From the IMG/VR virus record IMGVR_UViG_3300030104_005504, positions 7,145-71,144 of that record: DNA of 64,000 nucleotides; one strand, given 5' to 3'. Numbering within the stretch: the first letter of the stretch is position 1; each line of letters opens with the position of its first letter. Origin of the DNA: a virus. Shown in pieces: positions 1,564 through 49,342 of the stretch. The notes under the pieces were generated by a model. That model did no database searches, was not told the origin of the DNA, and saw only the letters and a list, made by a program, of their open reading frames with translations. Made by a program: the position numbers and the translations under genes.

Positions 1564-4500
1564 CTACGATTTTTCTACCCAAGTATTATCTGGATTAAAG
1601 TATATTTGACCATCTGTATCATCTAAGCAATACCCAATAACTCTAACAAAATCACCAGTACCACTTGGAGGTAATGGTGATATCCCGCCCGCTGTTGTGT
1701 GCACGTATAATGGATTACCAACATCACCCATATCAGAATCCATTGTTATTACACCTTTAATAAACATTCCATCAACATCAGGATCTGTTCCCAGTGCTAT
1801 AGCTAGCATACCCATAGCGTCTCTGTCTGCATCGTCACCTGTTGCTGCACCATCTGCATCTGCTTGTCCCCATTCTCCGTTTTCTTTTAGGTAGCAAAGA
1901 TCACCTTGAGTTGTACTACCTCCACCAAAATATAATACATCTCCTTGATGCTCAAAGTGAGTGGCACTTGTTGCGGTAAATTTACGATTAGCTTCTATAC
2001 CGGAAGTTGTAAACTTAGCCATTGTCACGGCGTCATCATTTAGTGTTATAGTACCGTTATCCGCATTTAATTCTATATCACCACTACAGTCAACGTCAAG
2101 ACTACCTGTAACCTCCATTGTTGGAGTTGAATCAAGATGGAACTGAAATCTTTCTGTGCCATTCTCTTTAAAGAATATATCTTCACCAGTGTGAGGGTCT
2201 AATATTATATCTCCATCAATATTAAATGTTAAATCTGCAGCTGACGCATTGTCGTCTACTGTTGACATAGTGGTGGCCCCATGAGTTGTTGTTGCTATAT
2301 AAAAGTAATCTCCTGTGTCAGCATGACTTCTACATAAAATATCAGGTGCCCCATCTATAACGGTAGTTCGTATACCATAAGTATCCTGGATATCACCCAC
2401 ACCATCTGTAAATACATTTAAATCAATACCTTTTCCAAATACATTACCAGCCGCGTTATCAGCATCGATATTTATATACATTCCCTTCATACTTACGTCG
2501 GCTGGAGCAACGTTTGTGGCGCTATCTTGGAGATCAATGGAGAGACCAGTCGTTACATTGTTGGCTCCACCGGTGGTTACCCCGCTTTTATCATAATCAA
2601 TATCAAGAATGGTTTTTTCGCTATCTCCAGTATTAGCATCATCAACGTCAATACGAACAATCTCACCATCGGTGTAAGAATTGCTATCAATATACAAAGC
2701 TCTTCCAGTAGTTAAAGGTCCAGCATCTATTTTTACAACGTCTGCTGTTGTATTTTCAGCATCAATACTTAATGCGATTTGATCAACATCATTATTATCT
2801 ATCTCCAACGCGGGTTGACCAGCAGTAGAGCCGTTTTGAACTTCAAAACCCCTACCATTAAAGGTAGTTTTCCCATCTACATTAAACGTTAAATGCGCGG
2901 CAGTTCCCGCGTTATCATGTGTTTCAAAAGTTGTCTCTGCATTTGACCCAACTGTTATAGAAAAATGATCATCACTGGTAACACCGCCTTCCTCATTCAT
3001 TACCAATCGACCATAATTACCATCTTCACCAATTACACTTAAAATAGGTTTTGCTACACCATCAATTTGCACGTTAAACATAATATCTGGGTTAGCGTCC
3101 GCAATCCAAGAAATGAATTGTCCATCTGGCTTAAAATTCATATGAGCTGTAGAACCACCACCAGCTTCAACTGTTGTAAATGTTGTTTCACCATCTTCTT
3201 TTGTATCTATAGTGAAATAATCCATGGCGTCAGCTGAGCTGCGAAGCTGTATGTCAGCACCTGCACCATCTTCACATTGTAGTTGTAGACCGTAGTTAAC
3301 ATCACTATCAGTTACAATCCCTCTAAATGCTACGTTTTGTGTTGTTCCACCAGTGCTAGAGGAGTCAACAGTAACGTTAACACCATACATATTCATGGTA
3401 CCAACATTGGTAGCAGCATCATTCATGCGAATATCCAAGCCTTGAGCAGTAACAGTGTTTAAGTTTTGAACCGCTCCAGATTTGTCGTAGTCTAAATACA
3501 ACATCGCGCTTTCACCTCCAATTCTATTTAAACTAGTTGTAGCGGTGTCGTTCCAGTCAATCTTTATACCTCCACCTGAGTCTGTTACAGATGCTAGGTT
3601 CATTACCATGCCATAGCCTGTCGTTAGGTCTTGACCATCTACATCTATTATATTGGCGGTAGTATTTTCAGCCTCTATGTCTAAGGCAATTTGATCAACA
3701 TCATTATTATCTATTTTTAGCGCCGCAGCTCCAGCAGCTGTACCAGTTTCTATTTCAACCCCTCCACCATCATTATCGGGAGATCTAAATTTAGTAAAAC
3801 CATCTACGTTGAATGTCAAGTCCGCAGCATGAGAGCTACCATTCACTGTAGCTATCTCGGTGGCACCATTTGTTGTTGTTGTCCAGGTAGAGTAGTCCGA
3901 GGAGTTAGCTGTACTATAATCTTGAAAAAATGCTCCACCATCTGTAATACTACTCTTAATTCCTAAGTTGGTTGTAGCGTCAGTTACCTGTAATGTCAAT
4001 CCTGTATTTTTATTACCTCCATTAGTATTAACAGAGTCAAGAGCTAATAACATACCAGTAAAATCAACAGTACTATTAGCATGGTTACTGCTAGCAGAAT
4101 CTGTAATATTTAAATTCAAACCTATTGTTCTATAGGTTTCACCATCTCCAGTGTTACCCGTCTTGGTAAAATCCCAGTCTCCAAATATTCCATCCAAATT
4201 ATTATAATTTGTTAATGAATTACTATTTGTAAGCTTGGTAAATGAAGCTGTTGTCAAGGCACCCCCATCAATACTAAGTATATCAGCTGTTGTGTTTGCC
4301 GCTGAAATATATAAAGCATTTTGATCTGTTTGCAACGCGTTTATATGTAAACCAGGTTGGCCGTGTCCAGATGCGCTGGTTATTTGCATTGGATGAGACG
4401 ATAACCACCTATCAGTAGCGGCTACCCAAGTTAACGATGCGTCATTTGAAGCATCAACAGCATCTTGAATTGTTATACCAGAACCATCTGCTGTTCCAGA

Positions 4501-6395: not shown

Positions 6396-9300
6396 TTATC
6401 GGTGAGCATAACATTTTTTACTCTTTCCATACTCACCCTTATTTCTACATCTAGTGCCAGAAGAAGTAGTACCAGTACATCTATATTCTTTTTTTCCGTC
6501 TCCATCTCTATCTTGACCTTCTTTAAATGAAGCATGATGAAAACACTTCCAACTCTTTTTATTAGTTTCAGTTGTCAAACCACATCTGCCACCACTTGAA
6601 TTAGAACCAGAACATCTAACTGTTTTTATACCTTCTTTTTTCTTTCTTTCTTCTTCAGCTTTTTCTTCTCTTTTCTTTTTATCCTCTTTTATAACCTTTC
6701 TAATCTCCTTGTCAACCTCTCTTTTTATCTTTTTTGATTCCTCTTTTTTCTCTTTAACTTTTGCTTTAGCTTTTTCTAGCTCTTCATCTTCAACACCTAA
6801 ACTCCACTTACTCCATCCAGATAGTAGCGCTACTTTTTGCCAAAGTTCATGATTACCTGTTAGTGCTTCTTCAACATTGTTAGCTTTATTTATTAACCTA
6901 GCAACTGGGGCATTTGTTAAAGCTTCAACCCAATTAGCCGCTATACTTAAGTTAGGGTTTTCAATTCTAAGACCTATCTCTTTGCTAACGCCCTTGTTCC
7001 ATTCTTCAGTTCTAATGGCTTGCATTATTTTTCTCATCTTAGTTCCTAATGGTGGAGAAAGATTTACTGCCTCTTGAGCTATATTCATATTTTCTCTTTT
7101 CCAACCCGGCTTTTCACGTTCTTCTTTCCATTTTACTAACACGTTTTTAAGAGTAGAAACCGCAGCGCCATAAATACCTGTACCTCTAAGTAAAGAATCT
7201 AAAGCTCCATTAGCAACTCTCTGTTCTAACGTTTCTTTTCTTTCCTCATCTTCATCCCAGCCGAATAGCATAAACATTAATCCAGTTTGAAGAGCACCAA
7301 AATATATATTTTGTATCAAGCCATAATAAGCTATACCTGATATATTAGCCATATCGCTTTGAAACTGTGTATAACCCGGTATTCTTCTTCTATTAACAAG
7401 ATCAGACATTTTCTTTTTCATCAATCTAGTCATCTGCATTGGTGTGTTTTGCCAAGCAAGTATTAATCTACCTAATGGACCAGCTTGTTGATTTGAGATT
7501 AAATCGGGTCTAGATGATTGTTGAGTTTCTTCAGCTACCTCTTGAAAATCCAACCAAGCTTGTTCTTTAGCTTTAGCTTCAGACATGCCTTGTTTTAAAT
7601 ATGTTTTTAGTCTATTTCTATAAAATGGAGCTCCACCTGCGGCTATAGCAAAACTATCCGCAACTTGAGTTGGTGTAAAACCTTTCTCTAATAACCAAGC
7701 TATTATAGCTTGAGGTTTATTTCTTCCATCATTAAAAGCTTTAGTTAATTCAGATGCCGATACATCTATCTGTAATCCAGCTCTTCTCTGTTTTAGCATG
7801 TCTGAATTAAATATGTAAACAAAGTCTTTAATAAACTGTGGCGCGTTAGCAAGAGCCGCTGCGGCAGCTACAGGATTGTTATCTGACATGTTTATAAAAT
7901 TAGCCATAGATATAGTCTGAAGTGTAGCTGATCTCATATTAAAGAACATTACAGCTCCAACTGAACCGTTAATCCAATCTAACAACCAGTTAACCTGAGA
8001 GTCTTTACCTGTTACCCTATTTTGACCAGTCTCCATTCTATATAACATCTTCTCAAGTTCATCTCTAAAACCTGTGCCATATATAGCTTCTATTTTATTT
8101 AAATTTTGTGGAGAAAATATTGTATTTTTATTATCTATCCATTTAGCAAAAAACTGTTTTCTACCTATTTCACGAACCGTGTTTGATAGATCACTAGCTA
8201 TAGATTCAACTGCCCAATAATCACTTGGTTTTATGTAACCCTCTGGAACTCTTGATATAATACCAAGCGCATCAGCAAAAGCTTTTAACTCAGCGTTATT
8301 ATTAATGTGATCTACTAATGTTTGTTTTTGACTATCAGATATTCCTGGTACTTCAAATCCAGACTTATCCCACAAATAAACTCTTATAGCGTTATCATTT
8401 GTAAAAGGTGTTCCCTTTACTTTCTTGTTTAAAATCTTTTTGATATTCTTAAACTCCTTCTTTAGAGCTTTATAGTCGTTAGACATGTTTTGTTTATAAG
8501 TGTTCCACTCTCTACTAGCTTCAGCAAAAGGATCCAATAGATGCTCTTTGAAAAATAAAGCATGGTTATTACCCTGCTCACCTCTACCTATAAAGGCATA
8601 TAACAAACCTTTAAAGTCTTCAGCTGATGGTGGGACAAAAAAGTTTTTAAATATATTTTTACCTTTACCAACACCTATCTTTCTAGCCTCTTGAGCTGAA
8701 AACATTTTACCAGCATTAATACCCTTTGTTTGTTCTAATATTTTATTAAAATCTAAAGCTCCCTTTTCACTAAACTTAATTCTAGCTTGAACAACCTTAG
8801 ATTTAATATCTAGCTGTTCTAGTACATCCTTAACAGCTTTTACGTTTGGTAAGGCATCATCTACGAAATACATATCATTATATCCCTCTGCAAACTTTTC
8901 TAACATCCAGTTGGCTTTAGATTCACCTCTACTATCTGCTAATCCTGTTATATTTTTAAATGGTATATTTACACCTTTAGATTTCAACCACTCGTGAATA
9001 GCAATATCAGCAGTTTGAGGTCTAGCTGTTAACACAAAAACATTATTAGGTCCATACTTTTTAATTTGATTTTTCATTTTCTGAAGCAATGGTCCGTCAA
9101 CTCCACCTCTTACATTTACAAAATCATCAAAGTTCATTTTGTAACCCTCAGCCATTAGCTCGGGACCTTTAATAGGCCAATCAGCTGAACTTATTTCTGT
9201 ATCTTGTCCAGTTATTGGATTTGTTGCTATAACAAAATTTTCTCCATCTATAATTAATGTCTCATCAAAATCAAACGTAGACATTCCTTTGCTTTTCTCA

Positions 9301-12300
9301 GATAATTTTGAATCAAACGTATAACCTCTTTTCTTTAGATCAGCCTCTATAGCATCGTTAATGTGCTTAACATCTAGTGGTGATTTTTTATGTTTAACTT
9401 TTGAGGCAGCTTTTATTTGCTCTGTAGCTTTTTGTTTTGTTATTTGTCCTGTTAGTATTCTAGTTATTAGTTCGTTTTGAATTGGAACAATGTGCTCCAT
9501 CTGAGCTTTTGTTAAACCCTTTACATTAACCCCAAAGTATTCTGTAACCGTCATGTTCTCACTGATTAAAAGATAATCATTAAGATTCACACCAGACTCT
9601 GTATACCTCACGATATTAGCTAAACCATCTGGCAGGTAATCTAATTTACCACTTAGTATTCTTGGGACAATTAATTCGTAAAATACATCTGGCATTTTAG
9701 AAGTGAAACCAGCATCAGCAACCATGTCATCATGAATAAGATCTAACGCCCATTGAGAATACGCCGCTCTAACAACCTTCATTGCATTCTTTATGTTGCC
9801 ATTTGGTTTTATAGCTTCAGCTAAAAGAATAGTCATTACCTCATTTTGAGGAAAACTATGTTCCTCTCTTACTTGTATGTAATTTATTTTATTATTCTTA
9901 TAAGGTATAACACTTAGTGGTGAAGATATTTTAACAACATGGTTCTGAGTGTTAGCACCCTCTTGAGCAAACAGTGCAAACACTGATGCAGAACCTTTAT
10001 TATCTTGGATATAATTCCTAATGTCTGTAAACATATCTTCTAACAAGTCTAGTCTACTTTTGTTATCATTTAAAAACTCCTTTTGACCAATCCACTTTCT
10101 TCCTTTTTTAAACTTAATTTTACCACCTTCAATTTTTATCTTATCTTTGTCTAGTTTTTCTCCTTTAGCGTAAGCATATCTTGTTAAAAGTTTTTTAATA
10201 TTCTCATCTGTTAAACCAGTTATCTCATAAAAAACATCTTTAACGCCAAATAAACTATTGCCATATCCACTTGCCATAGATGCTTGAAAGTACGGTATGT
10301 ACTGAGGATGTTTCTTTAAGAAACCACCTAGATCTTTTCTTATTTGTTTAGCTAGTTTAGAACTCTTTATGAAATCAACCAACTTTCTTTTCTTTGTTAT
10401 GTCCTTGTTTTTACCACCAAGATACTCTTCTACAATACGTATAACATCTAGAGATTTAACTCCAAGGTCTGACATTAATTTTCTAGTATTAAAATTAGCG
10501 TTCTTTTTAAACTCTAAAGATAAGTCTAAGTTAACCTTTTCGCTAAACATTACTTCTGATTTACCTTCACCAACCTTTTCAATAGTAGCCCTATCAATAC
10601 CTTGTTCGATAGCGTTCTTTCTTATTTGTTGGTTAGCTTCTAGTTGAGCAACTTGAGTTATAAAAGCTCTTAATGCACCATCTAATGATGTGCCTTTTTT
10701 ATTTGTTCCATCTGGATTAATACCAAATGCAGCTAAAAAATCTTTATTAGTTACATTGGGTTTCTTAACTTGAATAGGTAATCCAGCAGCAGTAGCTCCT
10801 TCTTTTACTTTAGCTCTACTACCTTTAATATAAAACTTATTTAAAAGACTAGGTGCAACACCAGTTGCTTTGCCACTTCTGTCGGTTCCTTCGGGTAGCA
10901 TGTCTATTAATTTACCTTTCTTAGATAGTTCAACTATTTTATTTCTAGCAGACTCTCTTTGTTTACCGTCTAGATCTTGGTTCTTTCTTATTCTATTAGC
11001 GTCAACACCAAAGTCCTTAGAAACAATATCTAATACTTTATTTAATGGACCGTTTGTAATTAATTTCTTAACACCCTTATATGTTAATTTAGATAAAGGT
11101 ACATTAGCTTCTTTAACAGTGTTTTCTATTTCAGAAACTTTTTTACTATCTAAACCTAATTCTTTATTAACTATTTTACCTTCAGCTTGTTTAGCACTAA
11201 CACCACCACCCGCTACTATATCTGTGTCTGCAATATCTATATCACCTTCTGGTGTAGATATAGAAACCGTTTCAGGGCCTTGACCCTTTGCTTCATCTAA
11301 TATTTGATTATATCTTGTTGGTAGAATTTTATTAACATAAGCACCAAATGGAACACCTTCTGCTGGATTCCAAGTTCTACCTAGATCAGCTAGTTCCATA
11401 AAGAAACCTGATTGAAATTCCTCAAGACTAACTCTTTTTGTGCCTGACATAACACCACCTTCATAAGCTTTTTTAGCCAACTTATTAGCGATAGCCATAT
11501 TGTTTTCAATTAGTTTATTTCTAAACCTATCTGACACAGCTTTATAAAACTTCTTGTCGTTTTCATAATACACTTCATCTAAACCTATTCCTTTGATCTT
11601 AGCGTTTTCTTTTATTTCATTATGAATCTTTTCGTTTATAGCAGCTATTTCTAAATTACTTTTAGATATATTTTCAGAGAGTTTAGTTTTAAACTCACTT
11701 TCGTTTCCATTAAACATTTCATCTATGAACTGAGCGTATTGAGATAACGTACTCTTTTTCATAGACTTTATATCTTTTATTGTAACTGTACCCGCCTTAA
11801 TCTTCTTAGCTAGGTTTGTTATAAAAGCCACGGCATCTGTTTCACCCTCAAAGTTGAAATCAAAATCTGAATTAGTTTCTTTAGCAACACCTTTGCTAAA
11901 TAAATAACCCATTAAACCTCCTAGTCCACTATTCTTTTTAGCTTCAAAATCTATTTTACCTTCAACAACCATTTCCATATATACGTTTAAAACTTCTTCA
12001 GGACTCTTACCATCTGTTTCAGCTAGTAGTAGCGCATATAGATTAGGATTTTTAGATTTAACATGTTGAAGTATTTGATTTGATATCTGAACAAAAGCCT
12101 CTGGATTTTTACCAAAAACCTCAGCAAATATAGTGTGACCAAGCTCATGTGTTCTTGTTTCAAGACGATCGTCTTTAGCCATGTTTTCCACAACCTGAAA
12201 TGGTATTCTTTCTCCATCTCTAGTAGGAACATTAGCACCATGACTACCATTTTCTATTTTACGTATAAGATTATCTTTTTCTTTTTGATCGATATTCATC

Positions 12301-15224
12301 TTATTTATTTCCTCAACAGCTTGTTCAACGGTTTGGTAGTTTCTTAATGACTTACCGAGTTTTGTTTTACCTCTTTTATTTTTGTAGTCGTTATTTATAT
12401 ATTGAGTGTTATATATTAATCTACCTTCCTCTTGCACTTGAGCATCACTAGGATTACTATTACCACCCTCTACTAGGTTGTTGTATGCTTCTTGAATTAT
12501 CTTTTCTCTTTTGTCAGTATCTTCTTTCGAATCACTAGCTAGAAAGCCATTGTATTTGTTACCAAATACCTTAGGATCTTTCATCATATCTATTTTAACT
12601 TGATTCTTATCAAATTTATTTTGAAGATTTTCTAATGCTTTCCTTTTTGTTTCAGCATCTAAAGATGAATCGTTGGTTATTTTCTTAGCTTGATTTCTTA
12701 TAACCTCTTGAGCTGAAACCGTCTTAAGAAATTCCTGAACAAATTTAGGAGACATGTTCTTCATTTGGTTTTCAACATTCTCCAGTATTTGATTGTTCTC
12801 TTTTTCTAATGCTTCAACTTGTTCATTTAAGATCTTAGCTGTCTCTGGTTTAATGTACCGCTTTGTACCATCTAGTTGTGTTTTGAGATCTGTTATTTTA
12901 TCTAGATTATCTCTATACTTTTGTTTGACTTCAGAGTTAGAAAATGTATTCATCATAACACCTTTAACAAAAGGTGTACCGCCGAATATAGTACCAAACA
13001 TACCACCGCTAAAAAGAGCATGATCTAGATTCTCTCCTATAGGTCTACCAGTTAAAACGTTTTGAGAAACCGTTGTTAAACCCTCTGATGACATTTCTAA
13101 TAGAGGATCTATTAATAATTGACGCTTACCATTTTGTATAAAATGCTGTTTAATACCATCTAAACCAGCTTGCATATTTTTACTACTAGTTCCGTACATA
13201 GCTGCCCAAGATCTTTTCATTACTGGTAGAGTCAAATATGTATCAAATATAAACTCCGCTGTACCATATCCAGCGCTTGTTAATGTTTTCTTTAATAGTG
13301 ATGATTCATTACCTGGATTTTCAGCATCTTTCCTTAACATTTCCGTCCAATTATCTCCAGCACTAGATAAACCTAAAGATGGTATACCAATACCTGGTAT
13401 AGCTATAGTAGCAAATATAGGTATTTGATTACCTATTTCTTGAGCAAGAAATCTACCGAAGTTACCCTTTTTAAAAGCGTTTTCAAACTTAACATCTGGT
13501 TGAAACTCGTTACGAGCAATTTGAGTTGCCCTGTCATAGCTAAGCATGGTTTTATCTAAGGTTTTATTATCAATACCCATTAAACCTCCAATAAGTTTAT
13601 TACCACCATAACCACCTTTAACTACTATTCTAGAAAACCCAGAAGTTATATTAAAAGCGAACTTTTCTAAGTCATTATAGTTTTTTTGTATAAGATTATT
13701 TTTATAATCACTATCTTGTAGATTTTCTATTTTATAAGAATTATCCTTAATCCACTCATCAAAGTTTTCAATAGAAGCTTTTGTTACGATATTTGAAACC
13801 TCATACTGCTCCCATTTATTTTTAGGAACCTTTCTTCCATCGTCTAATGTAACGTACTCTTCTCCCTCTCCTATAGCAAATCTAGCTGTTGGATCGTTAA
13901 AAAACTCAACCATGTCATTAACAACTTTTGTATGAGGATTTGTTTTTATAGCATCTATTTTTGATTTAAAGTTTAACTCGTAAGCCGCTAGTTCTTTTAT
14001 ATCTTTTTCATTTTTTAATAAAGAACCTATTTTAACTCTATTAATAATCCCCTCTCCTCCAAAAGTAAAAGTTTGACCCCCTCTAGTTACAGTTCTTCTT
14101 CTCGTACCCTCCACTTCATCGGAGTTCATTATATCTATAATATTTTTTTCTTGAGCTTCTTGTGTGTCTTTGATTATTAAGTTTTCTCTAGTAACAGCCT
14201 CTATTTGTTCTCTAGTTGGTTCTTTATAACCCTCCCTAATTAATTGTTGTTTTGCTTCCTCTAACTCTTCTTTATAAGGTTCAATAATAGTCTCGTATGG
14301 CGTCACTGTAAATTTGCCGGTATGATATTTTGTTTCTGTTCTAGGTTTAAATAAATCTTCGTTTATTTGAAAACCTTGCTCATCGATAGAAGCATATTTA
14401 TTTTTTATATCTCGCTTTTGTTGTTTGGTTAAATCCATGTTTAACGCCTCAACTTCACTAACAAGCTTACCCTGTTTTATTCTAGAGTTTAATTTATCTT
14501 CATCTGAAAGGGTGTTCTCTAGAAAGTTAATTAAATTATTACTAGAATTATTTCTTCTACGATCTACTTCTTCTTCTTTAAAAGCCAGCTTGTTTAATCC
14601 AAAATCTAAAATAGTATTTTCTCCAGATTCTTTATGTGTTATTTTTACTTGATTAGAGTTGTATCTATCCCCAGTTTCTTCATAAGAATAAATATCACCA
14701 AACATACTTTCTAATTGAACTATAGCTCCATCTTTGTCATTCTTAAAAAATTCATTAGTTCTACTGTTAGTTGTTTTTATATCTTCACCAATTATAAAAC
14801 TATATAAACCTTTATTTTTTTCTGATAAATCATATTGAAATTCATTTTCTTTTTTTCTATTTTCAAGAGTTTGTTTTTCTTTTCTATCTTTCTCAATTTG
14901 ATCGCTAGTTAAAACAGTGTAGTTACCAAAAATATCTTTTTGACTCTCAACGATATTACCTTGGGTGTCTCGTCTTTGTTGGTTTACCTGCTTCATAACA
15001 TCTTCGTTATACCATGATGGTAATTCCGAAGAAGTATTTCCCAAGTTGGATTCCGTATTTTCTTGTTGATTGTTTTGGGGCTGACTCGCCCCTTGCGACT
15101 TTCCCAACTCATCAGATTCTAGAGTTGCTGTCAGACCTTGTTTTTCTAATTGTTTTAAGAATTCCTGTTCTTTCTCTGGTGGAACCGATATAGGTCTACC
15201 ATCAGATAATATATAGTTTATCAT
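6396..15224 (-). CDS. giant virion cargo/ejection polyprotein (2942 aa): hydrophobic region, zincin HExxH, sigma70 region-2-like, HAD phosphatase, C-terminal CCCH zinc fingers
   Basis: THELGH at 12135-12149; LIENNMAIANKLAKKAY...WNPAEGVPFGAYV at ~11335-11530; FDFDETL/VLTAR/FVDDA at ~8780-9290; two C-x9-C...C-x2-H units at the C-terminus; next to ejection-type genes. Confidence 0.75.
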   Translation of the reverse strand: MINYILSDGRPISVPPEKEQEFLKQLEKQGLTATLESDELGKSQGASQPQNNQQENTESNLGNTSSELPSWYNEDVMKQVNQQRRDTQGNIVESQKDIFGNYTVLTSDQIEKDRKEKQTLENRKKENEFQYDLSEKNKGLYSFIIGEDIKTTNSRTNEFFKNDKDGAIVQLESMFGDIYSYEETGDRYNSNQVKITHKESGENTILDFGLNKLAFKEEEVDRRRNNSSNNLINFLENTLSDEDKLNSRIKQGKLVSEVEALNMDLTKQQKRDIKNKYASIDEQGFQINEDLFKPRTETKYHTGKFTVTPYETIIEPYKEELEEAKQQLIREGYKEPTREQIEAVTRENLIIKDTQEAQEKNIIDIMNSDEVEGTRRRTVTRGGQTFTFGGEGIINRVKIGSLLKNEKDIKELAAYELNFKSKIDAIKTNPHTKVVNDMVEFFNDPTARFAIGEGEEYVTLDDGRKVPKNKWEQYEVSNIVTKASIENFDEWIKDNSYKIENLQDSDYKNNLIQKNYNDLEKFAFNITSGFSRIVVKGGYGGNKLIGGLMGIDNKTLDKTMLSYDRATQIARNEFQPDVKFENAFKKGNFGRFLAQEIGNQIPIFATIAIPGIGIPSLGLSSAGDNWTEMLRKDAENPGNESSLLKKTLTSAGYGTAEFIFDTYLTLPVMKRSWAAMYGTSSKNMQAGLDGIKQHFIQNGKRQLLIDPLLEMSSEGLTTVSQNVLTGRPIGENLDHALFSGGMFGTIFGGTPFVKGVMMNTFSNSEVKQKYRDNLDKITDLKTQLDGTKRYIKPETAKILNEQVEALEKENNQILENVENQMKNMSPKFVQEFLKTVSAQEVIRNQAKKITNDSSLDAETKRKALENLQNKFDKNQVKIDMMKDPKVFGNKYNGFLASDSKEDTDKREKIIQEAYNNLVEGGNSNPSDAQVQEEGRLIYNTQYINNDYKNKRGKTKLGKSLRNYQTVEQAVEEINKMNIDQKEKDNLIRKIENGSHGANVPTRDGERIPFQVVENMAKDDRLETRTHELGHTIFAEVFGKNPEAFVQISNQILQHVKSKNPNLYALLLAETDGKSPEEVLNVYMEMVVEGKIDFEAKKNSGLGGLMGYLFSKGVAKETNSDFDFNFEGETDAVAFITNLAKKIKAGTVTIKDIKSMKKSTLSQYAQFIDEMFNGNESEFKTKLSENISKSNLEIAAINEKIHNEIKENAKIKGIGLDEVYYENDKKFYKAVSDRFRNKLIENNMAIANKLAKKAYEGGVMSGTKRVSLEEFQSGFFMELADLGRTWNPAEGVPFGAYVNKILPTRYNQILDEAKGQGPETVSISTPEGDIDIADTDIVAGGGVSAKQAEGKIVNKELGLDSKKVSEIENTVKEANVPLSKLTYKGVKKLITNGPLNKVLDIVSKDFGVDANRIRKNQDLDGKQRESARNKIVELSKKGKLIDMLPEGTDRSGKATGVAPSLLNKFYIKGSRAKVKEGATAAGLPIQVKKPNVTNKDFLAAFGINPDGTNKKGTSLDGALRAFITQVAQLEANQQIRKNAIEQGIDRATIEKVGEGKSEVMFSEKVNLDLSLEFKKNANFNTRKLMSDLGVKSLDVIRIVEEYLGGKNKDITKKRKLVDFIKSSKLAKQIRKDLGGFLKKHPQYIPYFQASMASGYGNSLFGVKDVFYEITGLTDENIKKLLTRYAYAKGEKLDKDKIKIEGGKIKFKKGRKWIGQKEFLNDNKSRLDLLEDMFTDIRNYIQDNKGSASVFALFAQEGANTQNHVVKISSPLSVIPYKNNKINYIQVREEHSFPQNEVMTILLAEAIKPNGNIKNAMKVVRAAYSQWALDLIHDDMVADAGFTSKMPDVFYELIVPRILSGKLDYLPDGLANIVRYTESGVNLNDYLLISENMTVTEYFGVNVKGLTKAQMEHIVPIQNELITRILTGQITKQKATEQIKAASKVKHKKSPLDVKHINDAIEADLKKRGYTFDSKLSEKSKGMSTFDFDETLIIDGENFVIATNPITGQDTEISSADWPIKGPELMAEGYKMNFDDFVNVRGGVDGPLLQKMKNQIKKYGPNNVFVLTARPQTADIAIHEWLKSKGVNIPFKNITGLADSRGESKANWMLEKFAEGYNDMYFVDDALPNVKAVKDVLEQLDIKSKVVQARIKFSEKGALDFNKILEQTKGINAGKMFSAQEARKIGVGKGKNIFKNFFVPPSAEDFKGLLYAFIGRGEQGNNHALFFKEHLLDPFAEASREWNTYKQNMSNDYKALKKEFKNIKKILNKKVKGTPFTNDNAIRVYLWDKSGFEVPGISDSQKQTLVDHINNNAELKAFADALGIISRVPEGYIKPSDYWAVESIASDLSNTVREIGRKQFFAKWIDNKNTIFSPQNLNKIEAIYGTGFRDELEKMLYRMETGQNRVTGKDSQVNWLLDWINGSVGAVMFFNMRSATLQTISMANFINMSDNNPVAAAAALANAPQFIKDFVYIFNSDMLKQRRAGLQIDVSASELTKAFNDGRNKPQAIIAWLLEKGFTPTQVADSFAIAAGGAPFYRNRLKTYLKQGMSEAKAKEQAWLDFQEVAEETQQSSRPDLISNQQAGPLGRLILAWQNTPMQMTRLMKKKMSDLVNRRRIPGYTQFQSDMANISGIAYYGLIQNIYFGALQTGLMFMLFGWDEDEERKETLEQRVANGALDSLLRGTGIYGAAVSTLKNVLVKWKEEREKPGWKRENMNIAQEAVNLSPPLGTKMRKIMQAIRTEEWNKGVSKEIGLRIENPNLSIAANWVEALTNAPVARLINKANNVEEALTGNHELWQKVALLSGWSKWSLGVEDEELEKAKAKVKEKKEESKKIKREVDKEIRKVIKEDKKKREEKAEEERKKKEGIKTVRCSGSNSSGGRCGLTTETNKKSWKCFHHASFKEGQDRDGDGKKEYRCTGTTSSGTRCRNKGEYGKSKKCYAHR

Positions 15225-20507: not shown

Positions 20508-23500
20508 TTAATCATAATTTGTTGCTGCTTCTGAATCATCACCATCATTTTGAACCGTCAACTCAGATACTTCTGCTGGATACTCACAACCATACTGTAT
20601 AGCCAAACCATCCACATCGTCCGATGAACCAGGTATAATACATCCATCACAAGGTGAATTAGCTAGTTCTACGTAGTTTGTTGCGGTCGGGTCCATACAA
20701 CCATAGTTGAACGCAATACATGGACTATCTGGATTGTTAGCACTTGTTTCATTTGTATTTGCTAAGGGATCATAATTGTAAGCTGTTTCATCTGTGCAAC
20801 CATACACAATGCTTTCACACGAGCCATCATCCTCGTTGGCTAACGGATTAAAGTTAAAAGCAGTAATATCCATGCAACCAGGAACTACAGCGACACATGA
20901 ACCATCATCATCCGTTGCATCTGGATTGTAGTTTAACGCTGTTGGATCTGTACAACCAGGTACATATGTTACGCAGTTACATGAACCATCATCAACAGTG
21001 GCTAATGGATTATAATTACTACACAAATATTCACCCATAGAATTCATACTACTGTCGGTACAACCCTCTATTATACCATCACCACTACAATCTTCAATTG
21101 CAGGATCACAATCTACACCACCTTCACAACATACGCAGGCTGAGCAGTCTATACACTCCACCGTAGCATTAGGATCATAGTTGACGTCGTTTTCATCCAT
21201 GCAACCATATAGAAGTTCGTTTCCACTATCCCCATCGTATTCACATGGTGCGCAAAAGTTAGCTGGCGCACTAGAATAATCAGCTATAGCTTGAATTTGA
21301 TCTTCAGTTAAACTACTACAGTCTAGTGTTGCATCACTATTATAGTTTAGAGCAGTTGGGTCCATACATCCCCAACAGTCATAATTGCAAACACCTTGTA
21401 TTGTTGCTAAAGAATTATAATTACATGCTTGGGGTTCTACGCATCCAACCTCATTTTCCTGTATTACTACTAGTTCGCCACAGCAATCTGGCACTCCATC
21501 ACCATCAGCGTCCGCACACGATGTTGTTGCTGCTGGATTATAGAATTCATAACTATTATCCATACAACCAACTTGTTCTTCTCCTTCTTCGAAGCAATCC
21601 TCGCACTCAACTAATGGTCCACACTCTTCTTCACCATCATCATTAACTATAATATTTTGACAAAATAAACAACTCCAAGAATAAACCTCAGTCCATGTTA
21701 CTACTCCACCAGACGTTAGTTCACCAAAGTCGGTTAAGTACCCATCTTGCGTTGCGTTTGCATTATAGTTTGTTGCGTTTTCATCTTGGCAACCAATAAC
21801 ATAACTATCACACGAACCGTCTTCAATACTAGCTATTGGATTATAGTTTGGAGCAGCTGGATCTGTACATCCTTGAACATTATATAAGCAGCTTCCATCA
21901 TCAATATCTGCTGGTAGCATTTCATTAAAATTGTCCGCCATTGGATCAGTACATCCTACAATATATCCAGTTTCATCACATTCAGCACCAGTACAATCAG
22001 TAACTATAACTTGAGCAGCCATACCTATTCCTTGAACTAAAAATTGACTAGGATCTGTTACAATACCACTATTACTACCATTTATTTTATTAAACCATTT
22101 CCCTTCTTTTTTTATAAACTCATTAACTTTACCTGTCTCTAAGTCTGTTTTAGCTAAAGAAACCCACCATCCATCTTTTTGATTTAAATTATAGTATTCT
22201 TTATCATTTAAAGCTACTTCAGTAGTTTCGTAACCAACGGGTATAACTTCTTGAACATAATTCATTTTTCCAGTGGTAACATCTTGAACTGTGCCTTGAA
22301 ACTCATTGATTCGAGCTTGAGAGCCTTCGTAATTTATTGTTTTAAAAGATTTAACAGTACTAGGTAGGTCATTAAATGAAACAGTTAACTCGGAATCGAA
22401 AACTTGCCCATAAAATAGGTTTCTAGATACATCTGAATTATCAGAGTATTTACTTCTATAGTGTTCGTATATACTATTTCTATATGTAGTATAATACTTT
22501 CCAGCAATAGATAAACCTTGAGATGGTACAAATGACTTAAAACTAACCCAACCCTTAGCTGCTTCGTTAAAAGAAACTGTTGTGTCTAAGTTTTGAAAAG
22601 CTTTTCTATGTTTTAATGACAAGTTGTATTCTCCAGAAACTTTATCAAAAGATCCCAGTAAACTTTCTGTTGCCCGCATATTATCTCTAAACCAAGTCTT
22701 CATGCCAACATCAGATATTGGTGTTAATCCATCTCTTGATAATCTTAATACAGCACCTCTTTGTTTGTCTGTGAAATACATTCTATATTGATCTGCTGTT
22801 AGAGATTCTGGATTTTTAGATATTCCATAATCTCCAACAAAAGGAATAGCTGTACCCAACACCTTGTCTGTTGCTGTTAACTGTGGATTACCATCAGCAT
22901 TAAACAAAGCATCTTTACTTGATAAAATCTTTAACACCTTGTCTTCAGTAAATACCACAATATCTGTATCTCTAGTTTTCATAGCCTGAATAGAGCCATA
23001 CGATGGATTTAATTCTTTAGTTATTTTCTCCGCCATGTTAAATTCATTCAGATTATTAATCTGTGAAGTAGAATTATATAAGCCAGAATATATTAAACCA
23101 CTACTAATATTCTCTTCTTTATAACCAGAAAATGTTGTTGACACTTTAACACCATTATCTAATTGAGGGGCATTATAATCGTCTCTAATTCTGTCTGATT
23201 CAACTCCATTACCAAACGAATAACAGTTAAACCAGGGTAGTTTAACAGGTTTATTCCAAGTTTCTATTTCCACTCCATAATAACCTGTTATACGTTTAAA
23301 GTGAAAATTAAAACGAACTGACGTAGAGCTTCCAGGAGGAGTTAATTGTATACCAGAGTACTGGATAGCGGAAATACTACCTATAGGTGTTACACCAGGA
23401 GTTATTATAGAAACTGGATAAAATGAATCTGGTGAAGCTATCGGGTTTTCAGCATCCCACTCTATAAAACTAAAAACATAAGTTGGTGTTATATTAGTAA

Positions 23501-26500
23501 AATTATATTCACAAACTTCCCCATCCAACGCTGCAACTTCACAAGCGTTCTGGGTTGTGTATGAAATTCCACTTGTTGTATTGTAGTACTGTGATACACC
23601 CGTTATTATATCACCCCATTGAACAGCATTAGAATTATATTGCGCCAATAAATTTCCCGCGCTAGTTAATATAACTTCACATTCCCTATCTCCTTCTTTT
23701 ATAAATGTTTTAGGAGTACTAGTTAAACCACCACTTTTGTCTTCGTCTGTTAATTCTGGAAATCCAGAAAGATTGTTACTTGCGGGATCATACGCCACGC
23801 CATCCACAGGTGAATATAAATCTTTAATAACTGTTTTGGTTTCAGTACCATCTCCATGTTCAAAAACCAACTCATCACCAATTAGTATTTCGTGTCTATG
23901 TAATTCTGTCCTACCATCATAATTCCAATCAGAAACAATTGCAACAATCGCTCTATTATCTTCTGACGTGAAATATAAATTTTTAACCCTATGATTATCA
24001 TAATTCTCTCCAAGCTCAACTGGTGTCATCACGCCGTCTACCTCTCTATTAACTTTTACTTTAGAATTTATAGGCATGTAATCGTACATGTTTGTACTAT
24101 TAATTCTCATTGGTATAGCTTTAGAAGCCTCATAATATAAATCTAAGCCCACATCTTCTTTGGGTTCAGTTTCAAAACAAGCACCTTTCTGCGCGTCGGG
24201 ATTAATAGTCTCGTAACTAACAGTTTGGACTGTTAAAAATTTTATTTTAATACTTTCACTACCATCATGTTTCATCCGACCACGTGGATCATAGGTACTT
24301 GTATCTAAACCTAAGTTTGTTAAAGTGTTAGTATCTTGTTCTATTTTTCTAAAATGAATTCTATATGAACGTCTTTCACACACATAAGGGTTATCTGTTA
24401 CAGGGCCACCAGGTTGACCGTCTGCCATAGTTAGTTCTTCAACCATATCACATGGTGCACAACCAGTATCTTCATTGGGTTGGTAAAACTCCATTGTATA
24501 ACCAAACCACACTGGTTGTGTTATGTTTCTAGAGTAATTTTTTACCTCAGTGGCTTCATTAACTCGTATAACTTTATAAATATCAGAGTCTCCTTCAAAC
24601 TGAAACAACTGATCAATAGTGGTTATTTTTCCAATAAATTCATTAGTTTGAGCACCATACTGAGTAGATTTCACTGCTGATATTGTTATTTCACCCTTAG
24701 TACCGTTAGAAGCTCCACCATCACTTAAAGATTCTGGTTCGTAAAAGTTTCCACCTGCGGGCGAAAATCCAGTTTCATTTGGAAATATCATTCTTCTAGC
24801 TTTAGCACCATCTATAAAAGCATGGCTTGTTGGCACCGTGGTACCAGAAGCGTTAGTTGTTTGTTTAGACACACTGTACGATCGCCAAAATGCCCTAGTC
24901 ATTTCATTATGCTGCCATGTACAAGAACCCATTACAGGGCCACCATTAGCACCTATAAGGCTTGTGTTATAAGAACCCGAGTTGATTTGACTCATAGATG
25001 GAATTAAAGTCACGGCATCTGATCCTAATATAGTGTCATAAATTTGTATAGTACCCTGTTGATACCACTCTGCCCCAAGTAATGTTGATGTAATATCATC
25101 TGGATCCCATATGTAAAAAGCTCCTTCATCAACAAAATCAAAGGTACTTTCACTAGTAAAACTCAATACAGCATTATCGAAAAAGTCAGGGTCTTCGTCT
25201 TCAGTAAAAGTATATTCTCCAGGAGAATCATCAACACTTGACCATATGTCAGTTATACCATCAAACGCTCCAAAAAACCAATTTGCACCATTATCAACTG
25301 GATTTGTAGCGGCTGGATCAAGTGAGAATGTAGCCTCGTCATTAGCGTGATCACCAACGGTAGCTTCGTTTTGAGACGAACTAGATATATAAGATAAATC
25401 ATATTCGCCATCAGATTGATATTCTATTGATTGACCCAACACCATAACACCTTGTGCTAATGCTTGGTCTTTTTCTATTTTAACAAAAAACTTACCATCA
25501 TACTCTGGCTTGTGTTGTACTACGGCTTCTCTAAACTCTATTGTATAAACTAAATAAGATTTTAGCCAACTAGCATCAGGAAAATCCGCAGCCCAAGCAC
25601 CACTTGTTATATATGGGTCGCTACAATTACTATCATCAGCAACCGAGTCTCCGTCGTCATCACAAGTAGCATCACATTCACAAAAGAATTGATAATGGTT
25701 AATATCATTTTCAGCAAAAGGATCGGTCCATGCTACTTCAACGTTAGCATTAGAGTCGGTTAATCTCCAATTAGATAGTGTTCTCCAAGCACTTTTTCTA
25801 GTGTACCGTATGGGGCACGTAGCAGCTGAACCATTAGCCTCACCAGCGTGATAACCTATTATTCTAAACTCTACTAATCCCTCAATTTTTCTACCAAAAA
25901 TACCCTCATCAGATTCAGTGTTAAAATAGTTGTTCCATGTGTTGGCTTGGATTTTAAACCTAGTACCTCCTTGAACAAGTCCAGCCGGAGGATTACTATT
26001 AGCATCACCGGTTAACCATATGCCCGTTGTATTAGTTGCGTCAAGACCACCAACACCAATACCAGTTGTTTCATCGTTAGGGTGGCCAATAAAACCTAAT
26101 CTAAGATATTTTGTTTTAACAAAATCTGGAGCTTCATTTTCAATAGCTATAATTTTATATCTAGCCTTTTCTAAAACCGGCTCCTCTTCTCCATGTCTAT
26201 TTTTTAATATTAAATAGGTTTCTTCATCAACCTTATTTCTATCAGATGAGTTAAAAGATATCCATATATTTTCATCTCCAGCGTCATACCATCTATCCAT
26301 TATAAGATTGTAGTATTCATTGGATGTTTCCTTAACATAATACTTAACGTAATCAATCCAGTCAGCTGGTGGTTCATCATCACTCCAATTTTGAGAAACA
26401 ACGAAATTGTTTTGTAAGGCGCAAAGTGTTTTTTCTACAGAAATATCACCTGTTAGTGAATCGTAAATTTCTCCCTCTGCGTCGATTGTACTACTATAGC

Positions 26501-34201: not shown

Positions 34202-36595
34202 TTACAAGTTTAAACCAGCATCTCCCGTTAGTATATCATTACCTGATGATTCAAATTTATTAAGAGAATTACCCTTATTTCTTTGATCTATCATATCTTT
34301 TTGATGAGCAGCCTGTCTGTCTACTCTATCATCTTTTCTATCTTCTCTTTTAGATTCGTTACGTTCTGTAATCTCTCTTTCCATTCCTTTTAATTGAGAG
34401 TTTAACTCAAACTCTAATTGCATTAATTCTTTCTTAGATTGAACTTCTTCTTGTAGATATTTTATTTTTAACTCATTTTTTGTTTGCTCTAATTGAGCAT
34501 CGGTTTGAGCTTTAGCTTGATTCTTTTGAACCTCCATTTGAGCAGCTGCCTGTTGTTGTTGAGCATTTGCTTGAGCTTGAGCTTGAATATTTTGTTGCTG
34601 TATCTGCTGATCTCTTTGCAGTTTATTTTTTCTTTTTATTTTTAATAACTGATTAGCTAGTTTTATATTTCTAACATCTCTAAGATCAATAGCATCATCT
34701 AAGTCAATAGATTTTTGAGCCAACGCTTGTTGTATATTATTTTCTAATATAGCTTTTTCTTCTTCATCTGGTAGCATTTCTATGAATATACCAAAATCAT
34801 GAAGATGTAAATTTTTCATTTCTTCTAATGTAGCCACATTATGAGCGCCCACAGCTTGAATAAAAGCTTCTTTTGTTGGTGAATATTCTACTATATCAGC
34901 TATTCTTAGAGATAAGCATTCTGCTGTTTCAGCTGTTAAGTATAACATTGATTGCAATATATGTCTAGTAGCTGTATTAGAATTTGCAGCAGCTAGTTTT
35001 TGAACACCAACTAAAGCATTAGCGTCAGGCATACTACCATCTCTAGCTTCATTTAATCCAGTCACATCCCTTATCATCTGCATGTAATAATTATAAGTTG
35101 TAATTAAACTTTGTATCTTATTACCTCCAGCCCCATTTTGTATTTGCTGAATTGGTACTTTACCTGGATTTTGATCTCCTTCAGATGTAAAACTTCTACC
35201 AATAACACTACCAGTTTGGAAGAACATGTTTAAGGCTTCTTGCGGATTGTAGTTTGTTCCATTACCAAGATCAACCTCAGCTAAACCATCAGCATCTAAA
35301 AATACTCCATCAGGAACCATTCGAGCCATTACTTGTTGCAACTTTAAGTGTGTTAGTTGAATCATGTCAGCAAAACCAGTTATTCTACCAACAAGAGATT
35401 CTATTCTACCCTCATACATTCTAGGTGCTACTATCTGGTAATTCATCTTAACTGATTTAAAGTCTGAATCAGATCTCATCATGTTGTCACACATTTTCCA
35501 TCTTAATAATTTATCACAACCAGGTAAGTAAACTCCTTCATATAAAGTTTCAACAACTCTTTCTAATTTACTAAATTCCCCATCCATACTTTCTATAGGT
35601 GGATTAAACGTGTCATCTTTTTGTATTACTCTTTCTGCTCCAGTAGATAATTTTTTTAATTTATAAACATCATTCATGTGAGTCTTGTAATTAAAATATA
35701 AAACTTCTATTTTATTTTTATCAGTATCACTTCTATATTTAGCTCTACTTGAAGCTGTTTGTCCAGAGTTATCTGTTATTTCTTTTATCTCCTCTTCAGT
35801 TAAATGTTCAAACTCTTTAACTAATTCATTTATTGGAATCTCTTTTACTTCACCAATATAATATATATCATCAAAATACGGTGAATCAGTATGTGACCAC
35901 ACTAAATTAACTGGATCAACGTATTTGCTTTTTGCACCATCAGCCCAATCAAATGTTGTCTTTGTTGCTGCTATACCTATAGTAGTTAAATCATATAAGC
36001 ATCTTCTTCTAACAAGATCATAATCACTATTTTCTAATAATACATTTATAGCTTGTTCTTCAGCTACTTCTACAGCTTGTTTGTATGTAAGTTGCATATG
36101 CAATGCTAGTTCCTCTTCTGTATCAGGTAATATGTCTGGATCATTTTCATACAAATCTATATCAAAGTTAGCTTTTGCTGCATCAATGAAATCTTTAGCC
36201 CTCATATCTCTAAGCATAGATTCCATATACTCTGTTCTTTTGCTTACCCCATAAGAATCCTGAGAGAAAGCGTTTATTTCATAGGATCTTTGTGCCATAC
36301 CATTAACAACAATATCCACGAACTTGGGAATAATAGGAACGGGTTTCCAGTCTAAATTTAAATAAGATAAATCACCATTAATAGATAATTCATTTTTATA
36401 TTTTTGTATTGATTGTTCACCTCTGGCGTACAATCTCAATTGATGAAACTTAGTTAATTGATCATCAAATTTAGACGTTGTTCCAGTGAACCATTCTTGT
36501 TTTATAGCTTTAGCTACTTTTAAACCATAATCATCACTTAGTTTTTCTAAATCACTAACTGCTTGTGATGGAAAGTTTATAACAGACTCTGTCAT
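34202..36595 (-). CDS. portal protein
   Basis: LRLYARGEQS, SYLNLDWKPVPIIPKFVDIVVNG, TGLNEARDG, Gln-rich C-terminal coil; next to TerL. Confidence 0.88.
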   Translation of the reverse strand: MTESVINFPSQAVSDLEKLSDDYGLKVAKAIKQEWFTGTTSKFDDQLTKFHQLRLYARGEQSIQKYKNELSINGDLSYLNLDWKPVPIIPKFVDIVVNGMAQRSYEINAFSQDSYGVSKRTEYMESMLRDMRAKDFIDAAKANFDIDLYENDPDILPDTEEELALHMQLTYKQAVEVAEEQAINVLLENSDYDLVRRRCLYDLTTIGIAATKTTFDWADGAKSKYVDPVNLVWSHTDSPYFDDIYYIGEVKEIPINELVKEFEHLTEEEIKEITDNSGQTASSRAKYRSDTDKNKIEVLYFNYKTHMNDVYKLKKLSTGAERVIQKDDTFNPPIESMDGEFSKLERVVETLYEGVYLPGCDKLLRWKMCDNMMRSDSDFKSVKMNYQIVAPRMYEGRIESLVGRITGFADMIQLTHLKLQQVMARMVPDGVFLDADGLAEVDLGNGTNYNPQEALNMFFQTGSVIGRSFTSEGDQNPGKVPIQQIQNGAGGNKIQSLITTYNYYMQMIRDVTGLNEARDGSMPDANALVGVQKLAAANSNTATRHILQSMLYLTAETAECLSLRIADIVEYSPTKEAFIQAVGAHNVATLEEMKNLHLHDFGIFIEMLPDEEEKAILENNIQQALAQKSIDLDDAIDLRDVRNIKLANQLLKIKRKNKLQRDQQIQQQNIQAQAQANAQQQQAAAQMEVQKNQAKAQTDAQLEQTKNELKIKYLQEEVQSKKELMQLEFELNSQLKGMEREITERNESKREDRKDDRVDRQAAHQKDMIDQRNKGNSLNKFESSGNDILTGDAGLNL

Positions 36596-38826: not shown

Positions 38827-39101
38827 TATTTAGATCTCCCTTCTGCGAATCCTTTAAAAGCAGTTTTCTTTTCTTCTTCTATCGGTCTTCCCTCAAGCAT
38901 TGCTTCTTCCTCGTGAATCCTATTTAATATTTCAAAAGCATCGAATATAGCTAACTTCTTTGTAGCTGCTGCATTCTTTAATCTATCAGCTGATATATCT
39001 TCGTCTGAATCAACTATTTCTTCTCTAGCAACTTTAATTAGTTCTTCAACCGCCTTGTGCCCAGCTTGGATTATATTCTTCTTCGTTTCCTTGATATTCA
39101 T
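38826..39101 (-). CDS. putative terminase small subunit
   Basis: 91 aa directly upstream of TerL; ADRLKNAAATKKLAIFDAFEIL, ends GFAEGRSK. Confidence 0.65.
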   Translation of the reverse strand: MNIKETKKNIIQAGHKAVEELIKVAREEIVDSDEDISADRLKNAAATKKLAIFDAFEILNRIHEEEAMLEGRPIEEEKKTAFKGFAEGRSK

Positions 39102-40128: not shown

Positions 40129-40165
40129 TTTATTTAATTTTATTTAGTTATTGTTTAGTTATTGT

Positions 40166-48266: not shown

Positions 48267-48391
48267 TTGTTAATATTTTTAATTTTAATAATTGTACGAT
48301 TCTTTATCGCTTTTCTACAATGAAGATAATTACACAGAAGAATTGATATTTACTATTTATCCCGTATTATAAATATAGGAATAAAGTGCAG

Positions 48392-48473: not shown

Positions 48474-48511
48474 ATATATTCTGACTTTTTTTCTCAAATA
48501 CATATTCACTC

Positions 48512-48545: not shown

Positions 48546-48569
48546 ATGTAACAAATAAATAATATACTT

Positions 48570-49330: not shown

Positions 49331-49342
49331 TTGTGAGTCGTC

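Follow-up and report, generated by a model that had tools for sequence, protein, structure and literature searches.

In a 64,000-nucleotide stretch of DNA from an uncultured marine phage (hereafter the window; bases 7145-71144 of the IMG/VR record IMGVR_UViG_3300030104_005504), it was found that four junctions of a giant multi-domain protein carry variants of a single short word. Related words stand at the same junctions in homologous proteins, and in several lineages the copies have been rewritten jointly. The protein (P0001; 2,942 residues) is encoded by one open reading frame (ORF) at window positions 6396-15224 on the minus strand, and it is a chain of enzyme-like modules with a zincin motif, HELGH, ahead of the first of these junctions. 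The presence of one word at the borders of unrelated folds, together with its joint rewriting in several lineages, implies a common reader of the words, and a site-specific protease is the best and simplest candidate. The first-pass annotation of this DNA had proposed a self-processing polyprotein that is cut at five such words by its own zincin. That the border words are cut by the built-in zincin, so that the chain falls into separate pieces, is the reading that I favour, if only tentatively.

The border words and their placement

The five words and the HELGH motif lie where the first-pass annotation had put them, its ranges covering the first four residues of each word. All features of the giant protein given below are on the minus strand. 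S2 (KLSEN; 11670-11684, amino acids (aa) 1181-1185) stands at the junction of the zincin-motif region and a sigma-like module, and S3 (MFSEK; 10536-10550, aa 1559-1563) at the junction of the sigma-like module and a domain termed D3. S4 (KLSEK; 9294-9308, aa 1973-1977) lies between D3 and a HAD phosphatase-like module, while S5 (KFSEK; 8763-8777, aa 2150-2154), the best-conserved junction, lies between the HAD module and the C-terminal domain. The remaining word, S1 (DLSEK; 14817-14831, aa 132-136), is aligned with the residues [LIV]-[SND]-x in the relatives.

The pattern [LF]SE[KN] occurs five times in the protein, compared with a mean of 0.306 in composition-preserving shuffles, none of 5,000 reaching five copies. 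The looser pattern [LF]SE has five copies against 1.67 expected (p 0.027). Since the pattern was picked post hoc, this enrichment by itself is of little weight, and the independent support comes from the homologues. The coding strands of the window have 45 further ORFs of 100 aa or more, in which [LF]SE[KN] was found once, as FSEK at residue 18 of a 139-aa ORF (53250-53669, plus strand), which is probably due to chance. The pattern is absent from a second giant ORF of the window (20508-28634, minus strand). In five related loci, the words of the respective lineages were found zero times in 1,592-3,856 neighbouring residues per locus.

Two structural models were made with alignments from the fetched loci: model A for aa 840-1990 (1,151 residues; mean predicted local distance difference test score (pLDDT) 76.2) and model B for aa 1960-2942 (mean pLDDT 72.1). 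It had been suggested that structure prediction should place the words in linkers. This was borne out for S3, S4, and S5, which are in low-confidence loops, but not for S2. In model A, the loop of S3 falls below a pLDDT of 50 at aa 1561-1565, and so does the stretch around S4 (aa 1965-1990), for which model B has a block pLDDT of 55. S5 occupies the loop from the last HAD strand to the first helix of the C-terminal domain, with pLDDT below 50 at aa 2148-2150 in model B. In contrast, S2 is inside a confident helix of the sigma-like fold (1175-1186, block pLDDT 84), and the alignments with sigma factors, which start from aa 1172, take this helix in. The edges of the HAD structural alignments are within 1-4 residues of S4 and S5. 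Several other low-confidence loops of model A have no word.

These positions bear on a different explanation, in which the words are never cut and the protein works as one chain. The word would then be a structural or docking element, for packaging or for a chaperone, or a joint for the exchange of cassettes. I regard such an uncut seam as somewhat unlikely. The last HAD strand leads straight into S5, S2 is in a helix, and the word may partly belong to the folds. On the other hand, a purely structural role gives no account of one word at the borders of unrelated folds.

The Ser codons at the five words are TCA, TCT, AGC, TCT, and AGT. My own reading of the codon frame of the words gave no standard slippery heptamer, and programmed slippage of that kind was discarded. 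Internal translation starts were also rejected as a general account of the border words. They fail for S2, S4, and S5 because Met precedes Phe at S3 only (in 51% of the representatives).

Conservation of the words in homologues

A protein search gave 590 relatives at E <= 0.001, the best 120 of which were listed. In IMG/VR, a relative is encoded in 537 of 577 candidate stretches, and of these 537 loci the best 80 were kept. Wherever the locus is complete, a single ORF of 2,135-4,134 aa makes up the gene, and in none of the 80 loci is the gene split into two ORFs. The shorter homologues in the protein database mostly begin at arbitrary points inside D3, and they look like truncated or miscalled genes.

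The first-pass annotation expected the motif to be kept at the domain boundaries. The exact word is not kept. P0002, the homologue closest over the full length (58% identity), has zero exact copies of [KM][LF]SE, the exact word has at most three copies in any homologue among the matches listed, and the form [KM]-[LF]-S-E-[KN] is, judging by these sequences, private to the lineage of the window. What is conserved is a related word, approximately [IV]-[KM]-[FYL]-S-[KERQ] and most often with the core [KM]-F-S-[KERQ], which is sometimes rewritten jointly. The 254 anchored sites give a pooled consensus of approximately [IV]-[KM]-F-S-K, in which F and S are partly fixed by the anchoring of the sites. 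The family consensus at S5 is VVQAK[IVL]KFSK. At S3, relatives have [MVK]FS[KERQ], and at S2 and S4 they often have [KM][FYL]S[KR]. Ser1561 of S3 is at least 90% conserved, while Glu follows the Ser in 11% of the junction words of the family.

To count the words, a strict word was defined as [FYL]S[KERQ] or FKR not more than 10 aa from the border, for which random positions give a background of 8.1%. It was found at S2 in 26 of 93 representatives, at S3 in 50 of 84, at S4 in 40 of 91, and at S5 in 83 of 118. Relative to random positions, the family word is thus 3.5- to 8.6-fold enriched at the four junctions S2-S5.

The recurrence of a post hoc pattern in a Lys-, Glu-, and Ser-rich protein might be a matter of chance. 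Four copies of SEK are unremarkable alone, P0002 has no exact copy, and S1 is not conserved. The S1 word is present in only 1 of 38 representatives, which is below the 8.1% background and counts against the scheme as first drawn. S1 is probably a chance match outside the junction system, and the claim that the words mark domain borders holds for S2-S5 but not for DLSEK at aa 132. For S2-S5, chance is largely refuted by the shuffles described above, by the out-of-sample support from the homologues, and by an unbiased scan that recovers the border words (see below). As an explanation of the whole pattern, I consider chance to be very improbable.

Concerted rewriting of the words

Every exact 4-mer present at least three times was collected from 185 homologues. 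This unbiased scan gave 737 cases, compared with 309-375 in shuffles. Border words account for 7 of the 12 most improbable cases, while 3 of the other 5 are low-complexity runs. In L044, FSRS is found four times (aa 812, 1235, 1633, and 2009; p 8e-9). Likewise, IKFS is found four times in P0094 and in P0121, KFKR four times in P0077 and in L013, FSKD four times in P0031, and IMFS three times in L024. The lineage word recurs at S2 in L013, L044, P0094, and P0121. With the exception of P0031, the four copies in these proteins (L044, P0094, P0121, P0077, and L013) are spaced like S2-S5; in one example, the intervals are 376, 425, and 179 residues, compared with 378, 414, and 177 in the protein of the window.

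The Ser codons at the four words of L044 are AGT, AGC, TCT, and TCA. Since the Ser codons differ between copies, selection acts on the protein and not on the DNA. The idea that the border words are DNA repeats was rejected on the same ground.

Co-variation between S3 and S5 was also found. Of 73 proteins, 37 have an identical residue after the Ser at the two junctions (18.9 in shuffles), and 24 have an identical residue one position further on (8.0 in shuffles). When 11 phylogenetic pairs were scored for K or not K, 6.8 differed the same way, 0.2 differed in opposite ways, and 3.9 showed no difference (median p 0.031). The joint change of four borders, as in the KFKR and FSRS lineages, with differing codons and unrelated flanks, is left unexplained by an uncut seam. 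Moreover, twelve bases with varying codons would be a poor substrate for a recombination joint.

Exchange of cassettes at the junctions

A comparison of homologues for domain swaps had been proposed along with the motif, and a swappable module was indeed found. Homology to relatives stops after S3 (20 ends of high-scoring segment pairs (HSPs) at aa 1560-1579) and returns at S4 (46 HSP starts at aa 1940-1979). Since homology is lost after S3 and regained at S4, D3 is an exchanged cassette. The family thus separates a fixed chassis (the N-terminal and zincin regions and the C-terminal domain) from exchangeable cargo. KFSK-type words stand on both sides of the modules inserted in P0190, P0123, and P0193. 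In P0190, an inserted kinase module has a copy of the junction and of the helix after it on either side, as recombination at a joint would give, which is a point in favour of the uncut seam.

Some other insertions were noted. In many relatives, the HAD domain is interrupted directly behind the DxDxT motif by a P-loop kinase (Pfam AAA_33 or Zeta_toxin), for example at aa 2931-3080 of P0074 and at aa 3020-3167 of the giant ORF of L026. This nested kinase-phosphatase resembles Pnkp, while the protein of the window has no kinase. A Pfam search of 43 aligned fragments found the kinase in three relatives and nothing else. In some relatives, a module of approximately 45 residues, W-[LI]-[IV]-D-x-T-T-x-E-G-[RK]-x-F, is present in one to three copies exactly at the S5 border (P0123 aa 565-748; also P0125, P0209, P0031, P0009, and P0021).

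The zincin-motif region and the proposed processing

The zincin-motif region covers approximately aa 990-1170 (11715..12257). HELGH (12135-12149, aa 1026-1030) is the sole HExxH of the protein, and Glu1077 (11994-11996) is a candidate third ligand, judged by its conservation and by its place in a predicted helix. N1014, H1026, E1027, H1030, and E1077 are each at least 90% conserved in the family, and HExxH is present in 178 of 184 complete homologues. Predicted helices carry HELGH (model A residues 182-198) and E1077 (residues 236-249), an HExxH helix with a Glu in a later helix, as would be expected of a gluzincin-type peptidase. Short strands are predicted ahead of the HELGH helix (model residues 157-173), with a block pLDDT of 44-63. 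Residues of the zincin region that track the border word were sought, and the zincin subtypes follow clades in a manner inseparable from phylogeny.

Processing of polyvalent phage proteins by their own zincin was proposed by Iyer, Burroughs, Anand, de Souza, and Aravind in 2017 (PMC5512222); in the part of that paper at hand, the zincin-like peptidase has an HExxH...Glu pattern. The protein of the window fits this published class, as had been claimed, by its HExxH and conserved downstream Glu.

In the proposed mechanism, the protein would be a polyvalent phage protein that is built as a polyprotein and delivered with the virion or alongside it. Its parts would be, in order, an N-terminal region with the HExxH...E zincin-like region, the sigma-like module, D3, the Pnkp-type HAD phosphatase, and the helical C-terminal domain. 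A single sequence-specific endopeptidase would recognise the border word, the most economical candidate being the zincin of the same chain, and approximately five pieces would result. The resident zincin is the most economical choice because HExxH is conserved, the word is confined to the protein, no other peptidase was found among the 30 other ORFs of the genome, and such processing is expected from the literature. Thermolysin-like zincins prefer a hydrophobic P1' residue. If this preference applies here, the cut would fall before the hydrophobic residue of the word and would give pieces of approximately aa 1-1181, 1182-1559, 1560-1973, 1974-2150, and 2151-2942. The cut could take place in the capsid or after ejection.

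A further proposal is that each lineage has a private, co-evolving cleavage code, in which the zincin and the four words change together (KFSK, KFKR, FSRS, and L/F-S-E). I think this unlikely. If it were true, the cargo of a double-stranded DNA (dsDNA) phage would be a genuine polyprotein, to be cut into a set of effectors that can be exchanged, among them a sigma-like factor that might act on the host RNA polymerase on entry.

The words might instead be read by another protease, either an unrecognised phage maturation protease or a host protease, while the zincin has host proteins or the cell wall as its substrate. The peptidase region had no match to a curated peptidase family (Pfam or PHROG), and no peptidase match came from the profile search against PDB sequences or from the fold searches, although the fold searches with the long model A were dominated by domains other than the zincin region. 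Six shorter homologues without HExxH retain words at S3 and S5. Other roles have been published for such zincins, namely an effector role (PMC5512222) and the degradation of peptidoglycan (bioRxiv 10.64898/2026.04.10.717836), as far as the available parts of the two texts go. On the other side, no peptidase family was found among the 30 other ORFs, most of which lack any annotation. The neighbouring virion genes here and in the five loci do not contain the word, in contrast to what is usual for the multi-substrate prohead proteases, and a host protease would leave lineage-private rewrites such as the fourfold KFKR unexplained. Thus, reading by another protease seems quite improbable.

Several observations weigh against cutting at the words by the resident zincin, in addition to the lack of a peptidase match, the poor conservation of S1, and the helical position of S2. 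The word is absent from 30-72% of the representatives, depending on the border. The word pattern also matches a conserved site of the C-terminal domain near aa 2375 in 46 representatives, in a helix with pLDDT 91, and another site inside this domain near aa 2178 in 16 representatives; FS words inside a domain would suit an uncut seam. Of the 22 insertions relative to the protein of the window, none has the word at both ends, and in 12 the insert is the kinase inside the HAD domain, where both ends lack the word. The strict word precedes the HAD domain in only 6 of 22 representatives that have another cassette at the D3 position. The evidence for concerted change has limits as well. In an unbiased 3-mer scan, the border word came out on top in 1 of 113 proteins. 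In an anchored test, a non-SK word common to three or more borders was seen in one case, with 0.154 expected (p 0.14). S3 agrees with S5 in 12 of 24 proteins that have a non-K S5 and a known S3. The paired phylogenetic test for E was not significant (2.7 pairs the same way and 1.0 opposite), and the co-variation is only modest after phylogenetic correction. Finally, the N4 virion RNA polymerase is packaged uncut despite having such a zincin, which is also in line with an uncut seam, while DdrB of phage P1 carries a zincin-like domain and is processed before packaging (both from the accessible part of PMC5512222). Since DdrB is processed and the N4 polymerase is not, the presence of a zincin alone leaves processing undecided.

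Modules between and after the words

The domains that the first-pass annotation had bracketed by the words were upheld, with a sigma-2-like fold at aa 1172-1313, a HAD fold of the Pnkp type with DxDxT at aa 1977-2150, and a confidently modelled domain between them. The sigma-like module is at 10551..11669 (aa 1186-1558), and the sigma-2-like fold, as aligned by VIA-align of model A, covers 11286-11711 (aa 1172-1313). It matched sigma32 (8hkc_E) with Z 8.7, a root-mean-square deviation (rmsd) of 3.7, and 112 aligned residues (VIA-align); regions 1.2-2 of RpoS (5h6x_B) with Z 8.0, rmsd 2.9, and 96 of 96 residues aligned; and sigma70 with Z up to 9.2 (8ftd_L, Z 9.2). The Z values of 8.0-9.2 are middling, and helical folds can match by arrangement alone in that range. 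The sigma-like label is upheld despite these values because the matches are consistently sigma entries: approximately 40 of 50 rows of a second structural search were RNA polymerase holoenzyme or sigma entries, and most of the top 11 in the first search were sigma. A Foldseek search of the 1,151-residue model A against the PDB gave nothing at E <= 0.001, and the best E of a profile search against PDB sequences was 0.52. There was no Pfam Sigma70_r2/r4 match in the protein of the window or in 42 relatives. The segment of aa 1349-1558 is confidently folded and had no structural match in the search with the long-fragment model. If released or active on entry, the sigma-like module could redirect the host RNA polymerase.

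The D3 cassette (9309..10535, aa 1564-1972) has a conserved EHxxP and a mostly confident model (aa 1564-1965). No match for D3 was found in Pfam, PDB sequences, or the ESM Atlas.

The 3'-phosphatase-like HAD module (8778..9293, aa 1978-2149) has the DxDxT motif at aa 1985-1989, and D1985, D1987, T1989, T2066, K2103, and D2122-D2123 are invariant or nearly so. The segment of aa 1977-2150 matched the T4 Pnkp phosphatase (5uj0_B) with Z 10.7, rmsd 3.2, and 127 of 142 residues aligned, and this alignment begins at the final residue of S4 and stops at the first of S5. Further matches were Pnkp1 (4xrp_A, Z 10.6) and T4 Pnkp (1ltq_A, Z 9.8), and Foldseek matched the module to HAD phosphatases with a probability of 0.97-0.99. 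The best Pfam match of the segment, DUF2608, was below the threshold (19.8 bits, cutoff 22.6). Motifs and the modelled fold together point to a HAD phosphatase of the Pnkp type.

The helical C-terminal domain (6399..8762, aa 2155-2942, approximately 790 aa) is the most conserved part of the family (50-81% identity). It had no PDB match, while 79 structural matches at E <= 0.001 were found in BFVD (for example, A0A6J7WSF1_2, E 1.9e-7, TMq 0.42). The names of the BFVD entries include "Large polyvalent protein associated domain", "PolyVal ADP-ribosyltransferase", and "Phage MuF C-terminal domain". In Pfam, the giant protein matched neither LPD nor MuF models. At the C-terminal end of the domain, there are two tandem C-x9-C-x12/13-C-x1/2-H motifs (6402-6614, aa 2871-2941) whose Cys and His residues are kept across the family and which are probably zinc knuckles.

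Comparison with known systems

The protein of the window resembles the polyvalent class, which has a zincin-like MPTase domain as its hub according to the part of PMC5512222 at hand, in being a giant multi-domain phage protein with HExxH and a downstream Glu, and in having a sigma-like module and an RNA-end phosphatase, which are suited to jump-starting infection. The structural matches of its modelled C-terminal domain include BFVD proteins annotated as polyvalent or LPD, and the modelled presence of several unrelated domains in one phage polypeptide agrees with the class. It differs from the class in having no Pfam LPD, MuF, or peptidase match. While that published account has, in the same part, no cleavage motif, a concrete border word with lineage-specific versions was found here. 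DdrB and the N4 virion RNA polymerase, both delivered by the virion, carry a zincin-like domain (PMC5512222, same part), and the protein of the window has a zincin motif. Another protein to be compared is gp47 of phi24B, a 2,811-aa polyvalent virion protein with a metallopeptidase domain. According to the available portion of the preprint (bioRxiv 10.64898/2026.04.10.717836), gp47 was seen in virions by proteomics and is a proposed ejection protein, and its peptidase was proposed to degrade peptidoglycan. The two proteins are similar in size, and both have a peptidase domain or a candidate for one. Unlike the protein of the window, gp47 has Pfam-recognised LPD and Muf-C domains, and no border motif is reported for it in that portion.

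No junction or cleavage motif for polyvalent proteins was found in the literature searched, which consisted of the accessible texts with the supplements excluded. Thus, the polyvalent class and the idea of processing by the zincin are known, while what appears to be new is a defined word at the borders, with predicted cut sites stated exactly. Phages and plasmids commonly carry polyvalent proteins, and self-cutting by zincin domains has been assumed since 2017. A family of at least 590 proteins and 537 viral loci would now offer four exact candidate sites per protein, together with predicted sizes of the fragments. The naturally rewritten words can be used as specificity controls, which turns an old hypothesis into a simple expression-and-mutation experiment. 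The findings also suggest that the proteins which such phages bring into the cell first include a sigma-like module and an RNA-end phosphatase.

RNA-virus polyproteins are single chains with a resident protease and a short consensus word at each border that co-evolves with the protease. Unlike these, the protein described here belongs to a dsDNA tailed phage and carries a zinc peptidase motif instead of a Cys or Ser protease, and its cutting is inferred from sequence.

Prohead proteases cut packaged and ejected proteins at short words with a Glu right before the cut, such as L/I-x-E for T4 gp21 and S/A/G-x-E for the phiKZ type. The L/F-S-E of the protein of the window resembles these motifs. 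It differs from them in that Glu is present in 11% of the family words and the word is confined to one protein. Sites of the T4 or phiKZ type were rejected: the Glu is not conserved, the other ORFs have no word, and no prohead protease was found among the 30 other ORFs of the genome.

Phe-Ser self-cleaving modules of the Nup98, ZU5, and FIIND type use a Ser nucleophile inside a dedicated fold. Such modules were also rejected as an explanation, as the KFKR lineage has Lys in place of Ser at four borders and the borders lie between unrelated folds.

T4 Pnkp 3'-phosphatase is the best structural match of aa 1977-2150, and the DxDxT, T, K, and DD motifs are kept. The protein of the window is unlike T4 Pnkp in lacking a kinase, and the kinase of its relatives is inside the HAD domain instead of being fused in front of it.

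Genome context

The source record is 71,144 bases in length and is rated as complete in IMG/VR. The same-strand block that contains the giant ORF also contains the portal gene, the large terminase gene, several virion structural genes, a GroEL/GroES pair, and the second giant ORF. The 2,942-aa product may be a polyvalent-type virion-module protein, its delivery by the virion being judged from the gene position only. With Pfam and PHROGs, nothing above the threshold was found for the whole giant protein or for eight segments of it, and a tblastn search against 50,697 cultured-phage records gave zero matches at 1e-5. Among cultured phages (87 records), the nearest by the portal protein are podoviruses of Flavobacterium, Cellulophaga, Tenacibaculum, and Maribacter, all with less than 60% identity.

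The second giant ORF (20508-28634) encodes a 2,708-aa protein assigned to PHROG 14478, "virion structural protein" (E 2.5e-118). A GroEL-like chaperonin is encoded at 43839-45407 (minus strand; phrog_5725, E 3.8e-137), and a GroES-like co-chaperonin at 39046-39624 (minus strand; phrog_13932). A GroEL/GroES pair is also encoded by Maribacter phage Panino (L002, PP540027.1). At the equivalent end of the structural block, Panino has an ORF for a 1,829-aa protein (35399-40888) annotated as "tRNA methyltransferase", which has no detectable relation to the 2,942-aa protein. This suggests that the slot at the end of the structural block is occupied by different giant proteins in related phages.

At approximately 48300-50700 of the window, the GC skew and the AT skew flip sign and the coding strand changes from minus to plus. 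This is the boundary of two divergently transcribed gene blocks. In the giant protein, the sole strongly hydrophobic segment is a transmembrane-like one at aa 601-619 (13368..13424), with a mean of 1.76 in a 19-residue Kyte-Doolittle window.

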